DNA of 64,000 nt, from NCBI GenBank assembly GCA_963846105.1, contig CAWJUT010000001.1, positions 32,292-96,291 on the forward strand. The letters are read 5' to 3'. This document shows, in pieces, positions 4,381-46,857 of this stretch. The position numbers and the translations under genes were made by a program. The notes under the pieces are model-generated. The model did not search any database. It was not told the DNA's origin and saw nothing but the letters and a program-made list of their open reading frames with translations. This DNA comes from an uncultured delta proteobacterium (GTDB lineage: Bacteria; Desulfobacterota; Binatia; UTPRO1). Position 1 is the stretch's first letter. Every line of letters begins with the position of its first letter.

Positions 4381-5622
4381 TCAGCGGCGCGGGCGGAGCC
4401 GGCGGGGCTCGCTCACCGCGGTCCGCCGCGGCGAGCGCAGGTCGCGCACGCGGTCGAGGATGACGCCTGCCACCTCGTCCTTGGTCAACTTCTCGAGGTG
4501 CTCGACGCGCCCGCTGCGCTCGATCAGCGTCACCACGTTGGTGTCGACGTCGAAGCCCGCGTCGGATCTCGACACGTCGTTCGCCACCATCAGATGCACA
4601 CCCTTCGCCTGCAGCTTGCGGCGGGCGTTGGCGACAAGATCACGAGTCTCGGCTGCGAACCCCACCAGCAAGCGCGTCCCGGGGAGCGCGCTCACGCGCG
4701 CCAGGATGTCGGGGTTGGGCGTGAGACGAAGCGAGATCTCGCCGCGCCCGCGCTTGAGCTTGTGGCGCGGCTGCTCCACTGGCCGGTAGTCCCCGACCGC
4801 CGCCGCCATCACCACGCAATCGGCGCGTGGCGCGTGCTGCAGAGCTGCGCGCTCCATCTCGCGTGCGTTCGTCACCGGCACCAGGTCGACGCCGCGCGGA
4901 GCCGCAAGCGCCGTCGGCCCGCTCACCAGCGTCACCTGCGCGCCGCGCCGCCGAGCCGCGCGCGCCAGCGCATACCCCATCTTCCCCGACGAGCGGTTGG
5001 CGATGTGCCGCACCGGGTCGATCGCTTCCCATGTAGGACCGGCGCTCACCAGCACGTGCACGCCCACCAGGTCTTTCACGCTGACGGCGGCCGCCACCTC
5101 CTCGACGAGCACGTGGGGATCCGGCAAGCGTCCCGCACCTTCGTACCCGCAGGCAAGAAAGCCGGCGTCGGGCTCGATGACGATCCGACCCAGATCGGCG
5201 AGGCGCGCGATGTTCTGCCGGACCACGGGATTCTCGTACATGTGCACGTTCATCGCCGGCGCCACCAGAATCGGCGCGCGGGTCGCCAGCGCGATCGTGG
5301 TGAGGAGGTCGTCCGCGATTCCGGTCGCGAGCTTGGCGATGACGTTGGCGGTGGCGGGAGCGATCAGCAGCGCGTCGGCCGTGTCGGCGAGTCGGATGTG
5401 GCCGATCTCGGACTCGTGCGTGAGATCGAACGTGCTCTGGGCAACCGGATTCCCCGAGAGCGTCTGGAGCGTGAGCGGGGTCACGAACTCGGCGGCGCCG
5501 CGCGTCAGCACGACCCGCACGGTTGCGCCCCCCTGCACCAGGAGCCGGACGGTCTCGCACATCTTGTAGGCCGCGATGCCGCCGGTGATCCCGACGACGA
5601 TCGTCTTGCCACGCACGCTCAT
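4381..5622 (-). CDS. coaBC: Bifunctional phosphopantothenoylcysteine decarboxylase/synthetase
   Basis: GITGGIAAYK, APATAN, APAMN..M, SAGPTWEAIDPVRHIANRSSGKMG, AAVGDYRP, VGFAAET. Confidence 0.97.
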   Translation of the reverse strand: MSVRGKTIVVGITGGIAAYKMCETVRLLVQGGATVRVVLTRGAAEFVTPLTLQTLSGNPVAQSTFDLTHESEIGHIRLADTADALLIAPATANVIAKLATGIADDLLTTIALATRAPILVAPAMNVHMYENPVVRQNIARLADLGRIVIEPDAGFLACGYEGAGRLPDPHVLVEEVAAAVSVKDLVGVHVLVSAGPTWEAIDPVRHIANRSSGKMGYALARAARRRGAQVTLVSGPTALAAPRGVDLVPVTNAREMERAALQHAPRADCVVMAAAVGDYRPVEQPRHKLKRGRGEISLRLTPNPDILARVSALPGTRLLVGFAAETRDLVANARRKLQAKGVHLMVANDVSRSDAGFDVDTNVVTLIERSGRVEHLEKLTKDEVAGVILDRVRDLRSPRRTAVSEPRRLRPRR

Positions 5623-7579: not shown

Positions 7580-8684
7580 CTACTGGTCGATCTCTCCGCT
7601 GATGAACTTCTCCACCAGATCACGAGCGAGATCGTCGGTGATCTGGATCGGCGGGTGCTTCATCAGGTAGGCGGAGATGCTGCGCAACGGCCCGCCGATG
7701 CCGCGATCGCGCGCCAGGCGGCAACAGCGGATGGCATCGATGGCGACGCCCGCGGAGTTCGGACTGTCCTGCACCGACAACCTGAGCTCGAGCTCCATCG
7801 GGACGTTGCCGAACGCACGGCCCTCGATGCGCAGGAAGCAGATCTTGTTGTCGCCTTGCCAGGGCACGTAGTCGCTCGGCCCGATGTGGATCTCGCGTGC
7901 CGGGAGACGTTCCGGCAGGACCGCTTGCACGGCCTCGGTCTTCGACACCTTCTTCGAGCCGAGACGGCTGCGATTCAGCATGTTGAGAAAATCGGTGTTG
8001 CCACCGGTGTTGAGCTGATACGTGCGCTCGAGCTTGATGCCACGATCGCTGAACAGCTTGGCGAGCGTGCGGTGCACGATGGTGGCGCCGAGCTGCGATT
8101 TGATGTCGTCGCCGACGACCGGGATGCCCCGACTGGTGAAGCGCTCGCTCCACACTGGATCGGAGACGATGAAAACCGGCATGCAGTTGACCAGACTCGT
8201 GCCGGTCTCGAGGCATGCCTGCGCATAGTGCTCGCCGGCCTTCTGGCTGCCGACGGGGAGATAGCTGACCAGGACCTCGGTGCCGGTGGCCTTGAGCACG
8301 GCCGCGACGTCCACGGGCGCGGTGCGGGCGGGCACGAAGGTCTCGTCGTCGGGGTAGTCGGCCATGTGCTCCGCCACGCCGTCGAGAATCGGTCCCATTT
8401 GAACCGTGACGCCGTACTCCGGGAGCTCGCGCCAGATCTCGATCGCCTTGTTCGGTCTGGCGAACACCGCCTTGTGGAGCGGTTGCTCGACCTTGCGCGC
8501 GTCGATGTCGAAGGCGCACGACGAGCTCGAGGTCCTCGGGCCGGTAGCCACCGAGGTCATAGTGCATCAGGCCGGTGTGCTCGACCGCCGCGGAGCCGTT
8601 CAGGTGCCGATAGTACTCGATGCCCTGAATCAGACTGCTCGCGCAGTTTCCGACGCCGACGATGCCGACCCGGATCTTCGTCAT
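7580..8684 (-). CDS. ino1: myo-Inositol-1-phosphate synthase (frameshift near 8520)
   Basis: [74 protein letters not shown]. Confidence 0.95.
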
Positions 8685-31956: not shown

Positions 31957-32360
31957 CCGCCTGGCACGAGCGTGACCGCCACCCTGCGCTCGGCGCGCGG
32001 GCCGTCGAGCTCGACCAGCATGATGCCCTGCCAGGTGCCGAGCACGAGCTCCCCGTCGCGAATCGGAATGGTCTCCGCGGGACCGAGGATCGCCGCCTTG
32101 ATGTGCGCCTGCGCATTGTCGTCCACCCGATCGTGCAGCCAGTTCGCGTGATCGGGAATGGCACGGTCGAGCGCCGTCAGAAGGTCGACGCCGATGTTCG
32201 GATCATCGTTCTCGTTCACGATGATGGCGGCGGTCGCGTGCAGCACCATGACGTGACAGAGTCCGGAGGCCAGTGGCGCCCGGCGGACGATCTGGCGCAC
32301 CTGTTCCGTGATCTCGATGCACTGCTTGCGCTGGTCGCTGCTGATCGTGAAGATCGTCAT
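31953..32360 (-). CDS. yjbQ: YjbQ family protein (UPF0047)
   Basis: HATAAIIVNEN.DP, HD..DDNAQAHIKA, LGTWQGIMLVELDGPR. Confidence 0.92.
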   Translation of the reverse strand: MTIFTISSDQRKQCIEITEQVRQIVRRAPLASGLCHVMVLHATAAIIVNENDDPNIGVDLLTALDRAIPDHANWLHDRVDDNAQAHIKAAILGPAETIPIRDGELVLGTWQGIMLVELDGPRAERRVAVTLVPGG

Positions 32361-40190: not shown

Positions 40191-40879
40191 GCGGTCCGCG
40201 CATCCTGGTGCTTCAGCACCATCCGCTCGAGCACCCTGGTGTGATCAGCGACGCGCTCAGCCAGGCAGGCGGACGCCTCGACGTCGCCAAGCTGTTCGAG
40301 GGAGCCCCTTGTCCACGCACGATGGCGGGGTACGACGGGCTCCTCGTCATGGGGGGCCCGATGGGCGCCAACGATCACCTGACGCATCCCGATCTCGTGC
40401 CCTGGCTTGCCGGCGAGCGCGCCCTCATCGAACGGGCGATCACCGCCGACCTGCCGACCCTCGGCATTTGTCTGGGCTCGCAGCTGATCGCGGCGGTCGC
40501 CGGCGCCGAGGTCTCGCGCGGCCCGGTCCCGGAAATCGGCTGGCATCGGATTGCCCCGACCCAGGCGGCCGTCAGTGACGCGCTGTTCACCGATACCGCT
40601 CCCTTCGCTGCGCTGGAATGGCACAACGATGTCTTCCCACTGCCATCAGGAGCGGTCGCGCTGGCGTCGAGCGCCAACTACCCGGTCCAGGGGTTTCGGC
40701 TCGGACGGCGAGTCTACGGCTTGCTGTTCCACCTCGAGATCGATCCGCGCATGGTGGAAGGTTGGCGTGAAGCGTTCGCCGCCGGCGGCCCGCTTCCGCC
40801 CGGAGACATCGCTCCAGACTTCGCGGGCGCCAACCAGCGCGCCGTCAGACTGTCGCGCCGGATCTTCCTCGGCTCGTAG
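40187..40879 (+). CDS. Type-1 glutamine amidotransferase domain protein
   Basis: VMGGPMG, LGICLGSQL, EIGW, WHND, LFHLE. Confidence 0.9.
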   Translation: MSGPRILVLQHHPLEHPGVISDALSQAGGRLDVAKLFEGAPCPRTMAGYDGLLVMGGPMGANDHLTHPDLVPWLAGERALIERAITADLPTLGICLGSQLIAAVAGAEVSRGPVPEIGWHRIAPTQAAVSDALFTDTAPFAALEWHNDVFPLPSGAVALASSANYPVQGFRLGRRVYGLLFHLEIDPRMVEGWREAFAAGGPLPPGDIAPDFAGANQRAVRLSRRIFLGS

Positions 40880-41120: not shown

Positions 41121-41404
41121 GGCGTTGCACGCACCGCACCGGAACGAAGCCGGCGACGGTCGAGCGGCGTGCGCATGGTCAGAATCTCCTGCCAGGCCCA
41201 TGCCGGAATGTGGAGCCAGGCCTCGATTTCCTCCTGCACCCGACCGCGCTCGTGGCCGAGACAGCGCACGCGGTGGTCGACGAGCTGAAAGATCGGACGC
41301 CATGGAACCGTCGTTCTTTTGCCGGTGCGCCGGCCGGCTGCGTACGCAGCCAGCACGACGACCGGTGGAACGAGGGCGACGATGCAACTGGTGGCGGAGA
41401 GCAT
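41117..41404 (-). CDS. Small single-TM protein A (95 aa)
   Basis: MLSATSCIVALVPPVVVLAAYAAGRR...HRVRCLGHERGRVQEEI; shares a motif with protein B. Confidence 0.55.
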   Translation of the reverse strand: MLSATSCIVALVPPVVVLAAYAAGRRTGKRTTVPWRPIFQLVDHRVRCLGHERGRVQEEIEAWLHIPAWAWQEILTMRTPLDRRRLRSGAVRATP

Positions 41405-42074
41405 GCAGCTGAGACGACCACGGACGCCGATTCTTTCGCGGCCCGCCGCCTCCCCCGCGCTCGCCGCGCCGCCGGTTCCGGCCGGAGAAGCCGCGGACCC
41501 GCTGCTCGTGGCGTGTCGCGCCGGGGATCCCGCGGCCGCGGAACGGCTCTTCGCCACCTACGCCCCCACCGTCCGTGCCGCGATCGGGCGCTATCTTGCC
41601 ACCCGTACGCGCGCGCGCATCGACCTGACCGAGGATCTGACTCACGAGGTCTTCGTCGCGCTGTGGCGCGACGATGGACGCCGGCTCAAGAGCTTTCAAG
41701 GACGTGACGGCTGCTCCTTTGCGGGATGGCTACGGGTGGTCGCCGTGCGCGTCGCGATCGACACACTCCGGCGCGACCGTCGCACAACCTCGCTCGACGA
41801 CGACACGCCGGCGATGACCGAGCTGCGACGCTGCCTCGCGAGCGGCGCCCCCGATCCAGAGAGCGTTGCACGCGGCGCCGAGACAGCCGAACGTCTGACG
41901 CGCGCCGTCGCTGCGCTCGGCCCGAAGGACCGTCTGCTGGTCGAGCTGCACCTGCTGCGCGGCACTCCGCTGCCTGTGGTCGCCGACATGCTCGGGGTCA
42001 CCGCCAACGCGGCCTACGTCCGCAAGAGCCGCGTACTCGAACGACTGCGACGGAGCCTCGAGGAGTCCGTATGA
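41403..42074 (+). CDS. ECF sigma-70 factor (start uncertain)
   Basis: DPLLVACRAGD.AA.ERLF, EDLTHEVF..LW, FAGWL..VAVRVAID, region 4 VADMLGVT.NAAYVRKSRVL.RLR. Confidence 0.9.
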   Translation: MQLRRPRTPILSRPAASPALAAPPVPAGEAADPLLVACRAGDPAAAERLFATYAPTVRAAIGRYLATRTRARIDLTEDLTHEVFVALWRDDGRRLKSFQGRDGCSFAGWLRVVAVRVAIDTLRRDRRTTSLDDDTPAMTELRRCLASGAPDPESVARGAETAERLTRAVAALGPKDRLLVELHLLRGTPLPVVADMLGVTANAAYVRKSRVLERLRRSLEESV

Positions 42075-43438
42075 GTCACGACACCCAGCGCGCCGCGCTC
42101 TGCCCGGACGACGACCTGCTCGCAGGCTACATCGAGCGCCGCCTCGACGAGGGGCGCCACGAAGCCGTCGAGCGCCACGTCGCCGCGTGCCCGCTCTGCG
42201 CCGACGTCGTCGCGGCGAGCCTCACGGCCGCGGAGGAGGCGCGCGCGGTCGACTCTTCAGCGCGCCCGGTTGCCGCCGCGCCGCGCCAGCGATCACGGCT
42301 TCGCCCGCGCCGGCTGGCGCTCGCTGCCGGTCTCGTCCTCGCCTCGACGTCGGTGCTCGGCTATGCCGGCAGCCACCTGCTCCTCGCCGCCCTCGGGCGC
42401 GCGATCGCCACCAGGGCCAGCATCGCCGCGGGAGCGCCGGTGACGATCGCCAGCGTCGGGCTCGGCGTGACGTGGGGCCCATCGCTCAGGCTGCGCCTGG
42501 ACGACGTGCGGATCGCCAGCCGCGCCCCGATGGCGGCGGCGCGCATCGAGATGACGACCGCGCTCGCGGCGTTGGTGCGCGGCGACCTCGCGATCGAGAC
42601 CGTGCAGCTCGTTCGACCGCTGCTGCAGGTGGGCGATCCCGCGCCCATGGCGGCGGGTGCCGCTCCCCGCCGCGCCACTTCGATCTCGGCGGGAGCGGCG
42701 CGATCCTGGCACTGCTCGCCCGCGGCACGCTCGAGGTCCACGACGGCACGTTCGTGGTGACGGCAAGCGACGCCGCCCCCCTCACCGTGATGCACGTCAA
42801 CGGCAGGACGCAAGCGCGCCGAGAAAGCGTTGCGATCGCCTTCACGGGCACGCTCGCTGGTGGCCGCGTCACCGCGACCGGAACGATCGCGCCCGAGACG
42901 AGCGGCGGCCTCGCCGTGACCGATTGCCGGCGCCGACGTCGCGCTCGCCGCGTTGCCCTATGTCCCCACTCGCGTGAGTGGTGTCACGACCTTGCGTTTG
43001 GCCGTCGGCGGAAGCACTACCGCGCCGACACTGCGTGGCAATATCCAGATCTCCAGGGCTCGGGTAGAGGGTTGGAACCCACTTCCCGCATTGCTCGATC
43101 CTCCGTCTGTACCGGGTCTGCTCGCCATCGTTCTTCCCCCGCTGGCGGCACCGAATCTCGGGCTGCACGACGTACGGGTTCGCTTCGCGGCGCACCGTGG
43201 CGCCCTGCGCGTCCAACGAGCTTCGTTTGCGAGCGCCCAGGTCCGCGGCTCCGGCTCACTTCGCCTCCACCGCGATGGTGCGCTCCATGGCGGCGGGCAT
43301 CTCTCCCTCCCGCCCGCGCTCACGCAGGCGCTGCTGACGCACACGCCCACGCTCGGTGTTCCCGGCGCCGACGGCAGGCTGGTACTGCCCTTTCGGGTCG
43401 CGGGCTCGGTTGCGACACCTCGCTTCGCGCTCGAGTGA
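42071..43438 (+). CDS. ZAS anti-sigma domain + TM + AsmA-like periplasmic region (frameshifts ~42700, ~42930)
   Basis: CPDDDLLAGY, HVAACPLC (HxxxCxxC), TM LALAAGLVLA; AsmA-type N-part LRLDDVRI...LVRGDLAIETVQLVRP and C-end LPFRVAGSVATP; ATGA-coupled to the sigma. Confidence 0.75.
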
Positions 43439-44345: not shown

Positions 44346-46154
44346 TCAAGACACGAGCGTCGCTCCCACCCACCCCGGCACGAAGAAGCGTACCGTGGTG
44401 CCGGCGTTCACCTCGCTGGCGATCTCCAGCCGGCCGCCGTGCGCCTGCACGATGTGCTTGACGATGGCGAGGCCGAGGCCGGTGCCGCCGAGCTCACGCG
44501 CGCGCGCCTTGTCGACGCGGTAGAAGCGCTCGGAGAGACGCGGCAGGTCCTCGGCTGGAATGCCGACGCCGGTATCGCGCACCTCGACCTCGACGACCGG
44601 AGTCGCGCCGTTCTCGGCGAGCCGCGCCGCGATGGTCACGTTTCCCCCGGCCGGCGTGTACTTGATCGGCGTTGTCGACCAGGTTGATCAGCACTTGCTG
44701 CAGACGATCGGGGTCGCCGCAGAGCGCCGGGAGATTGGTTGGAAGCGCGTGATCCAGGGTCACCTTGGCGCGCTCGGCCTTCTCCCCGAGCACCTCCACC
44801 AGCTCGCCGACCAGGCGTCCGAGCGGCACGGCTTCGCGCTTGAACGGCGTCTTGCCGAGCTCGAGGTCGGAGAGCGTGAGCAGATCGTCGATCAGGCGGC
44901 CGAGGCGCTCGGAATGGCGTTCGATGACGGCGAGGAACTGGCGTGCCCGGGTGGTGTCGTCGAGCGCGCCCCCGAGCAACGTCTCCGCATAGCCGCGGAT
45001 CGCCGTCAGCGGCGTGCGCAGCTCGTGGCTGACGTTGGCGACGAAGTCGCGCCGCATGGTCTCGAGCCGCTTCAGGTCGCTGACGTCGTGGAAGAACGAG
45101 CACGAAGCCGGCGCTCGCCGTTCCGGTCCCGGCGAGCGGCGACACGCTCACCGCGAGGACACGCCGCTCGGCGTCCGCGAGCGTGATCTCGCGCAGCGCT
45201 GGTCGCACAGCGTCGCGTGCGGTGAGCGCGCGCAGCACTTCGTGCAGCTCCGGGTCCCGGCACATCTCGAGGAGATGGCGGCCCCGATAGTCGGTGCCGC
45301 AGGGCAGTCCGAAGATCGACTGGGCGCGCTCGTTCATCAACACCACACCGCCGTCGCGTCCGACCACCACGACGCCTTCGACCATCGCGCCGAGCACGCC
45401 GCGCAGCTTCTCGCTCTCCTCACGCAGACCGCGAAAGGACTCCTGCAGGCGCTGGCCCATGTCGTTCAGGTTGCCCTCGAGCGCGCCGATCTCATCGGCG
45501 CGCGCAACCGGCAAGCGCGCCGACAGCTCGCCGCCGGCGACGGCGCGCGAGAACCCCACCATACGCTCGAGGCGACGCCCGATGCGATTGGCGACGACCA
45601 AAGCCGGCAGGAGCGCGATCGCGACCGTCGTCAGCACCGTGAGCAACAGCATGGTGACGAGGCGACGATCGGGTCCGGCGACGATGGCGGCCGGGATGGC
45701 GACGCGCACGATCCTCGCCTCCCGCCCTTCGCCGCTGCGAACCGCGGCATAGATGCGCGGCGCGTGCTCGGTCATGCTCTCGCGCCGTGCCACGCCCGTT
45801 CCCGTGCTGAGCGCCGCCGCGACCTCGGGTCGGGTGAGATGGTTCACCATCGTGGCCGCGTCGGCCACGCTGTCACAGAGCACGCGTCCGTCGCTCGTGA
45901 TCACCGTCAGGCGGCTGGTGCTGCCTTGGGTTTCGGCGTGGCAGCGCCGCGCCAGCTCGGCGGGCGCGAGATCGCGTGGGCAGACGCGCCGCGATGGCGC
46001 GGGCATCCTCGAGCGCCGCCGCGCTGACCAGCTCCGTCGCCACCGTGTCGGCGGCGCGCAGCGCCAACCCGTAGCTCGCCAGCAGGAACGGCGGCAGCGC
46101 CACCAGCGACGGCAGGAGCAAGTAGAGGACGAGCTTAGGCGTCGAGCGCGGCAT
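44346..46154 (-). CDS. phoR: Phosphate regulon sensor kinase (HAMP-PAS-HisKA-HATPase; frameshifts)
   Basis: FVANVSHELRTPL, NLVDNA, DTGVGI, RFYRVDKARARELGGTGLGLAIVKH; follows phoB. Confidence 0.93.
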
Positions 46155-46857
46155 CGTTGAACTTGTAGCCGACGCCGCGCACGGTGAGGATCAGCTCCGG
46201 ATGCGTATCGTCGCGCTCGATCTGCATGCGCAGGCGCCGCACGTGCACGTCGACCGTGCGCGGCTCCACGTAGGTGTCGTGCCCCCACACCATGTCGAGG
46301 ATGCGGGCGCGATCGAACACGCGATTGGGGTGGCGGACGAAGAATCCGAGCAGCTCGAACTCGCGGAGACTGAGCGCGACCTTCGCCCCGTCGAGGAAGA
46401 CCTCGTAGGTGTCGAAGTCGACCCGCAAGCGCCCGCGCTCGTAGATCTCGTGCGGGCGCTCGACCTCCGGTCCATGCGCGCGCCTGAGCACCGCCTTCAC
46501 GCGCGCCACCAGCTCGCGCGTGCTGAACGGCTTGGTGACGTAGTCGTCGGCGCCCATCTCGAGACCGACCACCTTGTCGACCTCGGCGGCTCTGGCGGTC
46601 AGCATCAGGATGGGCATGCGCCCGTTCTCCTCGTCACGACGGATGGCGCGGCAGATGTCCAGCCCCGACATCCCGGGCAGCATGATGTCGAGCACGACGA
46701 GCGCCGGGCGCTCGCGACGCACCAGCGTCAGCGCGAGCTCGCCCTCCTCGGCCTCGAGCACCTGGAAGCCCTCCTGCTCGAGGTTGTAGCGCACGAGCTC
46801 GCGGATGTCCTTCTCATCCTCGACGACAAGGACCTTCCGGGTGCGTTCCTGAGACAT
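46135..46857 (-). CDS. phoB: Phosphate regulon response regulator
   Basis: VVEDE, LDIMLP, GADDYVTKPF, RTVDVHVRRLR, TVRGVGY. Confidence 0.93.
   Translation of the reverse strand: MSQERTRKVLVVEDEKDIRELVRYNLEQEGFQVLEAEEGELALTLVRRERPALVVLDIMLPGMSGLDICRAIRRDEENGRMPILMLTARAAEVDKVVGLEMGADDYVTKPFSTRELVARVKAVLRRAHGPEVERPHEIYERGRLRVDFDTYEVFLDGAKVALSLREFELLGFFVRHPNRVFDRARILDMVWGHDTYVEPRTVDVHVRRLRMQIERDDTHPELILTVRGVGYKFNDAALDA

Follow-up and report, generated by a model that had tools for sequence, protein, structure and literature searches.

A predicted zinc anti-sigma factor with a short AsmA-like periplasmic domain is encoded beside an ECF sigma factor in uncultured Candidatus Binatia

We analyzed a stretch of 64,000 nucleotides (the window; positions 32,292 to 96,291 of contig CAWJUT010000001.1, assembly GCA_963846105.1) from an uncultured member of the Binatia, a soil bacterium. 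In this window, a gene for a sigma factor of the extracytoplasmic function (ECF) type is followed by a gene whose product joins a zinc anti-sigma domain, one membrane helix, and a beta-rich part predicted to be periplasmic, which is referred to here as the mini-AsmA domain. Two genes for small membrane proteins, sA and sB, are encoded divergently from the sigma gene, and a promoter-like motif is found between the two gene pairs, just inside the sigma open reading frame (ORF) as annotated. The features of the locus are listed in Table 1. The sigma product contained regions 2 and 4 only and scored above the cut-offs of its family models in both Pfam (Sigma70_r2, 35.9 bits with a cut-off of 24; Sigma70_ECF, 30.8 bits with a cut-off of 21.1; r4_2 was also matched) and NCBIfam (TIGR02937, 82.9 bits with a cut-off of 42.9), which places it among the ECF (group 4) sigma-70 factors. 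The NCBIfam scan assigned the sigma product to no specific subfamily at its cut-off. The stop codon of the sigma gene (TGA, 42072-42074) overlapped the start codon of the following gene (ATG, 42071-42073), and this overlap bears out the ATGA coupling of the sigma and anti-sigma genes that had been described in the initial annotation of this DNA. An ATGA or GTGA overlap between the two genes was found in all 11 orthologous loci inspected, and a sigma orthologue was located upstream of every anti-sigma orthologue. Between window positions 40700 and 43700, neither sigma-70-type promoters nor intrinsic terminators were predicted; the G+C content of the window is 69%.

Table 1. Features of the sigma/anti-sigma locus in window coordinates
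Feature	Positions	Strand	Remarks
Small membrane protein sB, 91 aa	40845..41120	-	H-x3-C motif THKVTCLG; paralogue of sA
Small membrane protein sA, 95 aa	41117..41404	-	Motif WRPIFQLVDHRVRCLG; GTGA-coupled to sB
ECF sigma gene	41403..42074	+	223 aa if the ATG at 41403 is the start
Bipartite motif AGACG-N15-TCTTTC	41412..41437	either direction	Candidate ECF-type promoter
Anti-sigma gene	42071..43438	+	Zinc domain, one membrane helix, ~350-residue periplasmic part
Cytoplasmic zinc anti-sigma domain, residues 1-55	42071..42235	+	Ligands C11, H36, C40, C43
Single transmembrane helix, residues about 82-106	42311..42388	+	Hydropathy, charge, AlphaFold2 model
Periplasmic mini-AsmA domain, ~350 residues	42389..43438	+	Stop codon included; hhalign, profile, AlphaFold2/Foldseek
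First frame change, frame back by one	42635..42675	+	Short C-run within the stretch
Second frame change, back to the original frame	42919..42923	+	Compensates the first

The product of the anti-sigma gene starts with MSHDTQRAALCPDDD...HVAACPLC, in which an H-x3-C-x2-C motif is combined with the upstream ligand C11. All four ligands (C11, H36, C40, and C43) were invariant across 13 sequences, as in the zinc anti-sigma (ZAS) motif. In distant members, His replaces C11 as the first zinc ligand; both Cys and His are known at this position among zinc anti-sigma domains. Against the Pfam model zf-HC2, which has a gathering score of 22.2, the window copy scored 21.0 bits, just under the cut-off. Most intact family members exceeded it (25.1 for P0004, 27.8 for P0006, and 27.8 for L014), and P0005 (18.2) and the orthologue in L011 (19.6) were under it. 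In the AlphaFold2 (AF2) model of a full-length homologue, the zinc domain was helical and a long helix was formed at residues 78-121, overlapping the only strongly hydrophobic segment of the protein (residues 82-106). This segment is preceded by an Arg-rich linker with a net charge of +5, thereby placing the N-terminal domain in the cytoplasm and the remaining ~350 residues in the periplasm. The HxxxCxxC zinc domain (H36-x3-C40-x2-C43) and the single transmembrane helix of the initial annotation were thus both recovered. The genetic coupling to the sigma gene, with the overlap present in all loci, and the zinc motif predict that this domain is the anti-sigma factor.

In the assembled sequence, the reading frame of the anti-sigma gene is divided into three pieces (42071 to about 42650, about 42676-42918, and 42923-43438, with the stop codon at 43436-43438). 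Indels had been suspected near 42700 and 42930, and the true positions of the frame changes are within a few tens of bases of these. A tblastn comparison with an intact homologue and relatives was colinear over all three pieces, each of which was ~60% identical to the intact homologue. The phase of the G+C content at third codon positions (GC3) followed the shifted frame and switched at both frame changes. The rate of such switches was estimated by comparing 37 well-conserved ORFs from 80 kb of a short-read relative with this genome; 19 of the 37 contained frame switches, with 32 switches in 36.5 kb, or ~0.9 per kb. The adjoining gene for a PhoR-like histidine kinase (44346-46288, minus strand) has two, at about 44667 and about 45094. 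The genome is represented by 27 contigs with an estimated completeness of only 61.6%, and few contigs together with low completeness are characteristic of a long-read assembly that contains indels. In the relatives, the orthologues were intact, with 430-505 aa in one frame. Because of the assembly-wide switch rate and the intact single-frame orthologues, these comparisons indicate that both frame changes are almost certainly assembly errors and that the organism itself has an intact anti-sigma gene. We know of no living cell with half of its conserved genes broken, and for this reason the gene was treated as intact in vivo. Programmed frameshifting was ruled out, as similar frame switches are scattered over unrelated genes and the orthologues are read in a single frame. 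A true pseudogene in this organism, which would leave the sigma factor unrestrained, is very improbable. The two frame changes and the in-frame stops of the sequence as given would agree with such a loss; however, the second frame change compensates for the first, the shifted piece keeps its GC3 codon signal, the similarity to the intact homologue extends through all three pieces, and about half of the conserved genes in the assembly show the same type of defect. This frequency of frame switches should be taken into account whenever a gene in this genome looks broken.

The relationship of the periplasmic part to AsmA-like proteins was examined at the levels of sequence and structure. In Pfam scans, the pieces of the window copy gave sub-threshold matches to DUF748 (16.6 bits, cut-off 50) and AsmA (11.4 bits, cut-off 29.8). 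Sub-threshold matches to DUF748, YhdP, AsmA, and TamB began at the profile start and covered the membrane helix and the first strands; the matches to DUF748, YhdP, or AsmA started at profile positions 7-20, as for a chorein-N-like start. The helix ahead of this start is internal to the protein, unlike the usual arrangement in the clan. Pfam evidence alone was therefore graded as suggestive of AsmA likeness. When a profile of the family was used, AsmA-clan proteins were matched with E values down to ~1e-23, and 797 matches were obtained at an E value of 1e-10 or better. The best 150 of these 797 matches (E values up to 1e-17) typically consisted of one N-terminal and one C-terminal match. Seven of the matched proteins that lack the zinc domain were scanned, and all seven carried Pfam AsmA-clan domains above cut-off; five had AsmA, one had TamB, and several had DUF748 or YhdP. 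In addition, stand-alone proteins of 420-480 aa without a zinc domain aligned over the whole periplasmic region, and the two that were scanned exceeded the Pfam AsmA cut-off (78.7 bits for P0122 and 52.6 bits for P0100). Comparison of the periplasmic family with the stand-alone AsmA proteins by hhalign gave a probability of 99.7% and an E value of 1.8e-25 over 346 columns. A distant member, P0056, exceeded the Pfam cut-offs for both zf-HC2 and AsmA (30.0 bits against 29.8 for AsmA) and was the only one of the zinc-domain members tested to reach the AsmA cut-off. Its name in IMG is "AsmA-like C-terminal region/Putative zinc-finger."

For the full-length homologue, the AF2 model (predicted local distance difference test [pLDDT] score, 74.9) contained ~20 long strands following the helical zinc domain and the membrane helix. 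The periplasmic domain of a relative was also modeled alone (pLDDT, 83.4; predicted template modeling [pTM] score, 0.76), and this model was compared with 350,542 PDB chains by Foldseek. The best match was LPD-3/BLTP1 (E value of 3.3e-4, probability of 0.97), followed by TamB (E values of 1.8e-2 and 8.7e-2) and an N-terminal fragment of Vps13 (E value of 2.6e-2). The three best-matching proteins all belong to the bridge-like lipid-transfer class. Hidden Markov model (HMM) searches of the PDB sequences with the family profile and the stand-alone AsmA profile found nothing significant, with TamB at an E value of 0.98. Judged by profile homology and modeled fold, the periplasmic part belongs to the AsmA-like clan as a short and divergent member, with a predicted beta-groove fold like that of TamB, Vps13, and LPD-3. 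The beta-rich region of ~350 aa with AsmA-type N- and C-terminal patterns that was noticed in the initial annotation can thus be attributed to true homology rather than chance (profile, hhalign, and fold), and the structure prediction and Foldseek comparison, which could have uncovered another fold, placed the bridge-like class on top.

Next, we examined the distribution of the protein. Among 18 genomes of the same family, 16 had a match, and 13 of these matches were full length in a single open frame without a stop codon. The relatives are metagenome-assembled genomes (MAGs) of Candidatus Binatia. Intact homologues of 457 aa (the closest, 61% identical), 462 aa, and 458 aa were also present in the protein database. 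Word-indexed protein searches returned 3 to 4 homologues only, probably due to the Ala/Gly/Arg-rich composition of the protein. An exhaustive profile search of 1.84 billion representatives yielded 46 proteins below 1e-30, and ~42 clusters (at 50% identity) spanned both the zinc domain and the C-terminus, that is, the whole architecture. A phylum-wide draw of 251 genomes contained no full-length copy outside the family, and all named database members were MAG proteins of "Candidatus Binatia" or "Deltaproteobacteria bacterium." Because of these two results, the family is considered narrow and is so far confined to uncultured Binatia-type lineages. Within these lineages, the proposed fusion of a zinc anti-sigma domain, a membrane helix, and an AsmA-like region is a real architecture that is intact in the relatives.

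In the stand-alone form, mini-AsmA genes showed a different setting. No sigma factor was found near the stand-alone genes examined, and these genes were not located beside split sigma/anti-sigma pairs. The gene for one of them, P0100 (L030 246-1618), lies ~2.4 kb downstream of genes for phosphatidylserine decarboxylase and CDP-alcohol phosphatidyltransferase, a neighborhood that gives a weak contextual link to phospholipid synthesis.

In distant members, the architecture was linked to MltA, a peptidoglycan enzyme. A 795-aa fusion consisting of the zinc domain, the AsmA-like domain, MltA, and a 3D domain (P0090, L028 4528-6915) was found in six cluster members, one of which was recorded on 7 contigs, and the sigma gene and a small protein gene adjoin this fusion. 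In L020, MltA (7836-8564) is encoded by the next gene downstream. Conservation of the fusion, of the gene order, and of the small-protein partner extended down to 24-28% identity. These arrangements suggest that short AsmA-like proteins are functionally connected with a lytic transglycosylase, and the MltA tie in distant members would indicate envelope or cell-wall status at least as much as lipid flux. The only MltA gene of the window genome (G000 C17:273839-276064) follows a class V aminotransferase gene, and an uninterrupted frame of 742 codons runs through both. Because the MltA part has a lipoprotein-like signal of its own (LVAC), the aminotransferase and MltA are probably encoded separately, with no stop to be seen between them in this frame. 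This MltA gene is on a contig other than that of the module, and no promoter-like motif was found near it.

The twin small proteins encoded divergently from the sigma gene, which had been pointed out in the initial annotation, are present and conserved. Each of them has an N-terminal helix followed by a basic stretch and a conserved H-x3-C motif, and the two share 33% identity over 60 residues. Both were found in 12 of 12 family loci, and a single copy of the sA/sB type occupied the same position beside the distant modules L020 (24% identity; 4742-5029, minus strand) and L028 (3413-3703, minus strand). The H-x3-C motif corresponds to half a zinc anti-sigma motif and is in a predicted cytoplasmic tail. 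Neither protein had a match in NCBIfam. Strict synteny and a shared promoter-like motif are what suggest a role of sA and sB in the module.

The start codons of the sigma gene (41403-41405, plus strand) and the sA gene (41404-41402, minus strand) overlap head to head in a GCATGC palindrome at 41401-41406, so that the two genes would have no intergenic DNA between them if both start codons are correct. Since the promoter-like motif lies downstream of the sigma ATG at 41403, that start is uncertain; the next in-frame start codon is a GTG at about 41508. The actual sigma start may be further downstream or may be masked by an indel. The motif, with the consensus rGACG-N15-TCTTwC, was present at the same place in 14 of 14 loci examined, including the distant loci L020 and L028. 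Read on the minus strand, the window copy is GAAAGA-N15-CGTCT, with its end 7 nt ahead of the sA start codon, and the corresponding consensus, GwAAGA-N15-CGTCy, ends 7-11 nt before the ATG of the small protein. We take the geometry of the minus-strand reading to resemble that of ECF promoters (an AAC-like -35 element, a 16-nt spacer, and a CGTC -10 element); a leaderless transcript would presumably result. For the plus-strand reading, the distance from the end of the motif to the first in-frame sigma start is 7-22 nt in the family and >100 nt in the distant loci. The motif is a candidate ECF-type promoter that could be read in either direction.

By a small balance of probability, we consider the four genes to be a signaling module of Candidatus Binatia in which the mini-AsmA domain provides the input, the sigma factor is released, and the output is local. 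This proposal extends the parts, topology, homologies, conserved synteny, and motif described above by analogy with class I anti-sigma factors. The zinc domain would hold the sigma factor at the inner membrane, and the mini-AsmA domain would be the input module, reporting an envelope property that may be either the lipid occupancy of its groove or the contact with a partner in the cell wall or outer membrane. Contact with a partner would agree with the MltA fusion seen in relatives. Once this envelope state is lost, the sigma factor would be set free, for which RseA-type regulated proteolysis of the anti-sigma factor is the most likely route. Acting on the conserved local promoter, the freed sigma factor would then turn on the small H-x3-C proteins, its own operon, or both. 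The module could plausibly sense the state of lipids or of the envelope; the direct reading of lipid flux proposed in the initial annotation is pure conjecture. It is a tentative possibility that the AsmA or repeating beta-groove (RBG) fold serves as the signal input itself, with groove occupancy or docking passed via the helix to the zinc domain and with sA/sB-type proteins as the third component. The small H-x3-C proteins would then be either a feedback partner of the zinc domain or the sole regulon.

Several results weigh against the module as proposed. E. coli AsmA-like proteins consist of ~120 residues of chorein-N plus an AsmA region of 425-1125 residues, and >700 beta-rich residues are considered enough to span the periplasm (PMC8593681). 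In contrast to these proteins, the module protein has ~350 periplasmic residues, about half of the bridging length (PMC8593681), and by itself the mini-AsmA domain therefore amounts to a stub rather than a bridge. Pfam gathering scores for the AsmA families were reached by neither the window copy nor its closest orthologues. When the full-length model was used, Foldseek returned only meaningless beta-barrel and LacZ matches; with the periplasmic-domain model, a single match was below an E value of 0.001 and the template modeling (TM) scores were low (0.2-0.3), as expected for long twisted sheets. A genome scan for GwAAGA-N14-16-CGTCy gave 16 matches compared with ~13 expected and revealed no convincing second target. 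Since the motif is at chance level genome-wide, the regulon may be local. In addition, a zinc anti-sigma domain can itself be a sensor.

If this applied here, the zinc site would be the real sensor: cytoplasmic oxidation or zinc loss at C11/H36/C40/C43 would free the sigma factor, as in RsrA, ChrR, and RslA, and the mini-AsmA domain would be a working module of envelope biogenesis or just an anchor. The four ligands are invariant with Cys11 as the first in the family, and the ligand spacing with Cys11 is the same as in RsrA. The stand-alone homologues of the periplasmic domain without a nearby sigma factor also agree with this explanation, as they indicate that the domain has its own function. 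However, the change of C11 to His in distant members gives a ChrR-like set that is not obviously redox-tuned, and the retention of the fusion, gene order, and small partner to such low identity indicates that the periplasmic part matters for signaling; we regard a zinc-based sensor as rather doubtful. An assembly checkpoint was also considered, in which a short AsmA-like envelope factor would work with MltA or an outer-membrane partner and the tethered sigma factor would increase module and helper expression upon failed assembly or turnover of that factor. The MltA/3D fusion and the MltA adjacency in distant members support such a checkpoint, and a domain too short to bridge alone (PMC8593681) would be in line with it. 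On the other side, MltA is on another contig in the window's family with no motif copy nearby, and no partner was identified; we consider the checkpoint quite unlikely.

The proposed signaling module was compared with known systems. With the ZAS class I anti-sigma factors (the membrane-bound RslA-SigL, the soluble ChrR-RpoE, and the redox paradigm RsrA-SigR), it shares the [C/H]-x24-H-x3-C-x2-C motif, an N-terminal helical domain, translational coupling to an ECF sigma factor, and a single-pass topology with a C-terminal extracytoplasmic domain, but here the extracytoplasmic part is an AsmA-like beta-groove domain. As in the RseA-RpoE system, a single-pass anti-sigma factor would keep an ECF sigma factor at the inner membrane, with release proposed to occur by regulated proteolysis on envelope defects. 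RseA is not of the zinc type, and its periplasmic domain binds RseB, which senses lipopolysaccharide (LPS) and lipids, and is not itself a lipid-groove domain. The protein resembles AsmA-like and bridge proteins (TamB, YhdP, YdbH, and AsmA; Vps13 and BLTP1/LPD-3) in having a helix followed by a chorein-N-like start, a beta-rich groove, and an AsmA-type C-terminal end. It differs from them in the 55-residue cytoplasmic anti-sigma domain ahead of the helix and in closest members that are under the Pfam thresholds, and from the E. coli proteins in its much shorter periplasmic part. Dma1 of Bacteroides is the nearest published concept, although it is built quite differently: this anti-sigma factor reaches the outer membrane via a disordered linker and an eight-stranded beta-barrel and is found in Bacteroidota only (PMC10927553). 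In both cases, the extracytoplasmic part is drawn from the outer-membrane or envelope toolkit and plausibly reports the state of the outer membrane to an ECF sigma factor. The protein described here has an AsmA-like groove and a zinc motif, whereas Dma1 lacks such a groove and the published passage on it mentions no zinc motif (PMC10927553). The AF2 models contained continuous long strands and short helices, with no barrel and no long disordered linker, and thus did not resemble Dma1.

A full-text literature search found no description of an anti-sigma factor with an AsmA, DUF748, or AsmA-like domain, and AsmA, DUF748, TamB, and lipid are not mentioned in the main text of the ECF reclassification paper. 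The view that the system is undescribed therefore holds in that no characterized counterpart was found in the literature searched; the architecture itself is not unseen, as one member has been named automatically in IMG. Neither the sigma factor nor the zinc domain is unusual within its family. What is apparently undescribed is a conserved type of putative sensor domain that is combined, in an uncultured lineage, with an otherwise classical sigma/anti-sigma pair.

It is an open question how the supply of phospholipids to the outer membrane is sensed and balanced in diderm bacteria. To our knowledge, AsmA-like proteins have only recently been proposed as phospholipid conduits, and we know of no dedicated regulator that reads them. 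An AsmA-like groove fused to an anti-sigma factor is a compact and genetically tractable candidate for a read-out of phospholipid supply. The general importance of the system is limited while it is confined to uncultured Binatia-type lineages, until its function is shown. The AsmA fold exists here as a minimal unit of ~350 residues that can be recruited for signaling, and the repeated association with MltA hints at the way in which short AsmA-like proteins may cope with the cell wall. If the groove is indeed the input, the module would provide these bacteria with a direct transcriptional read-out of envelope lipid status.

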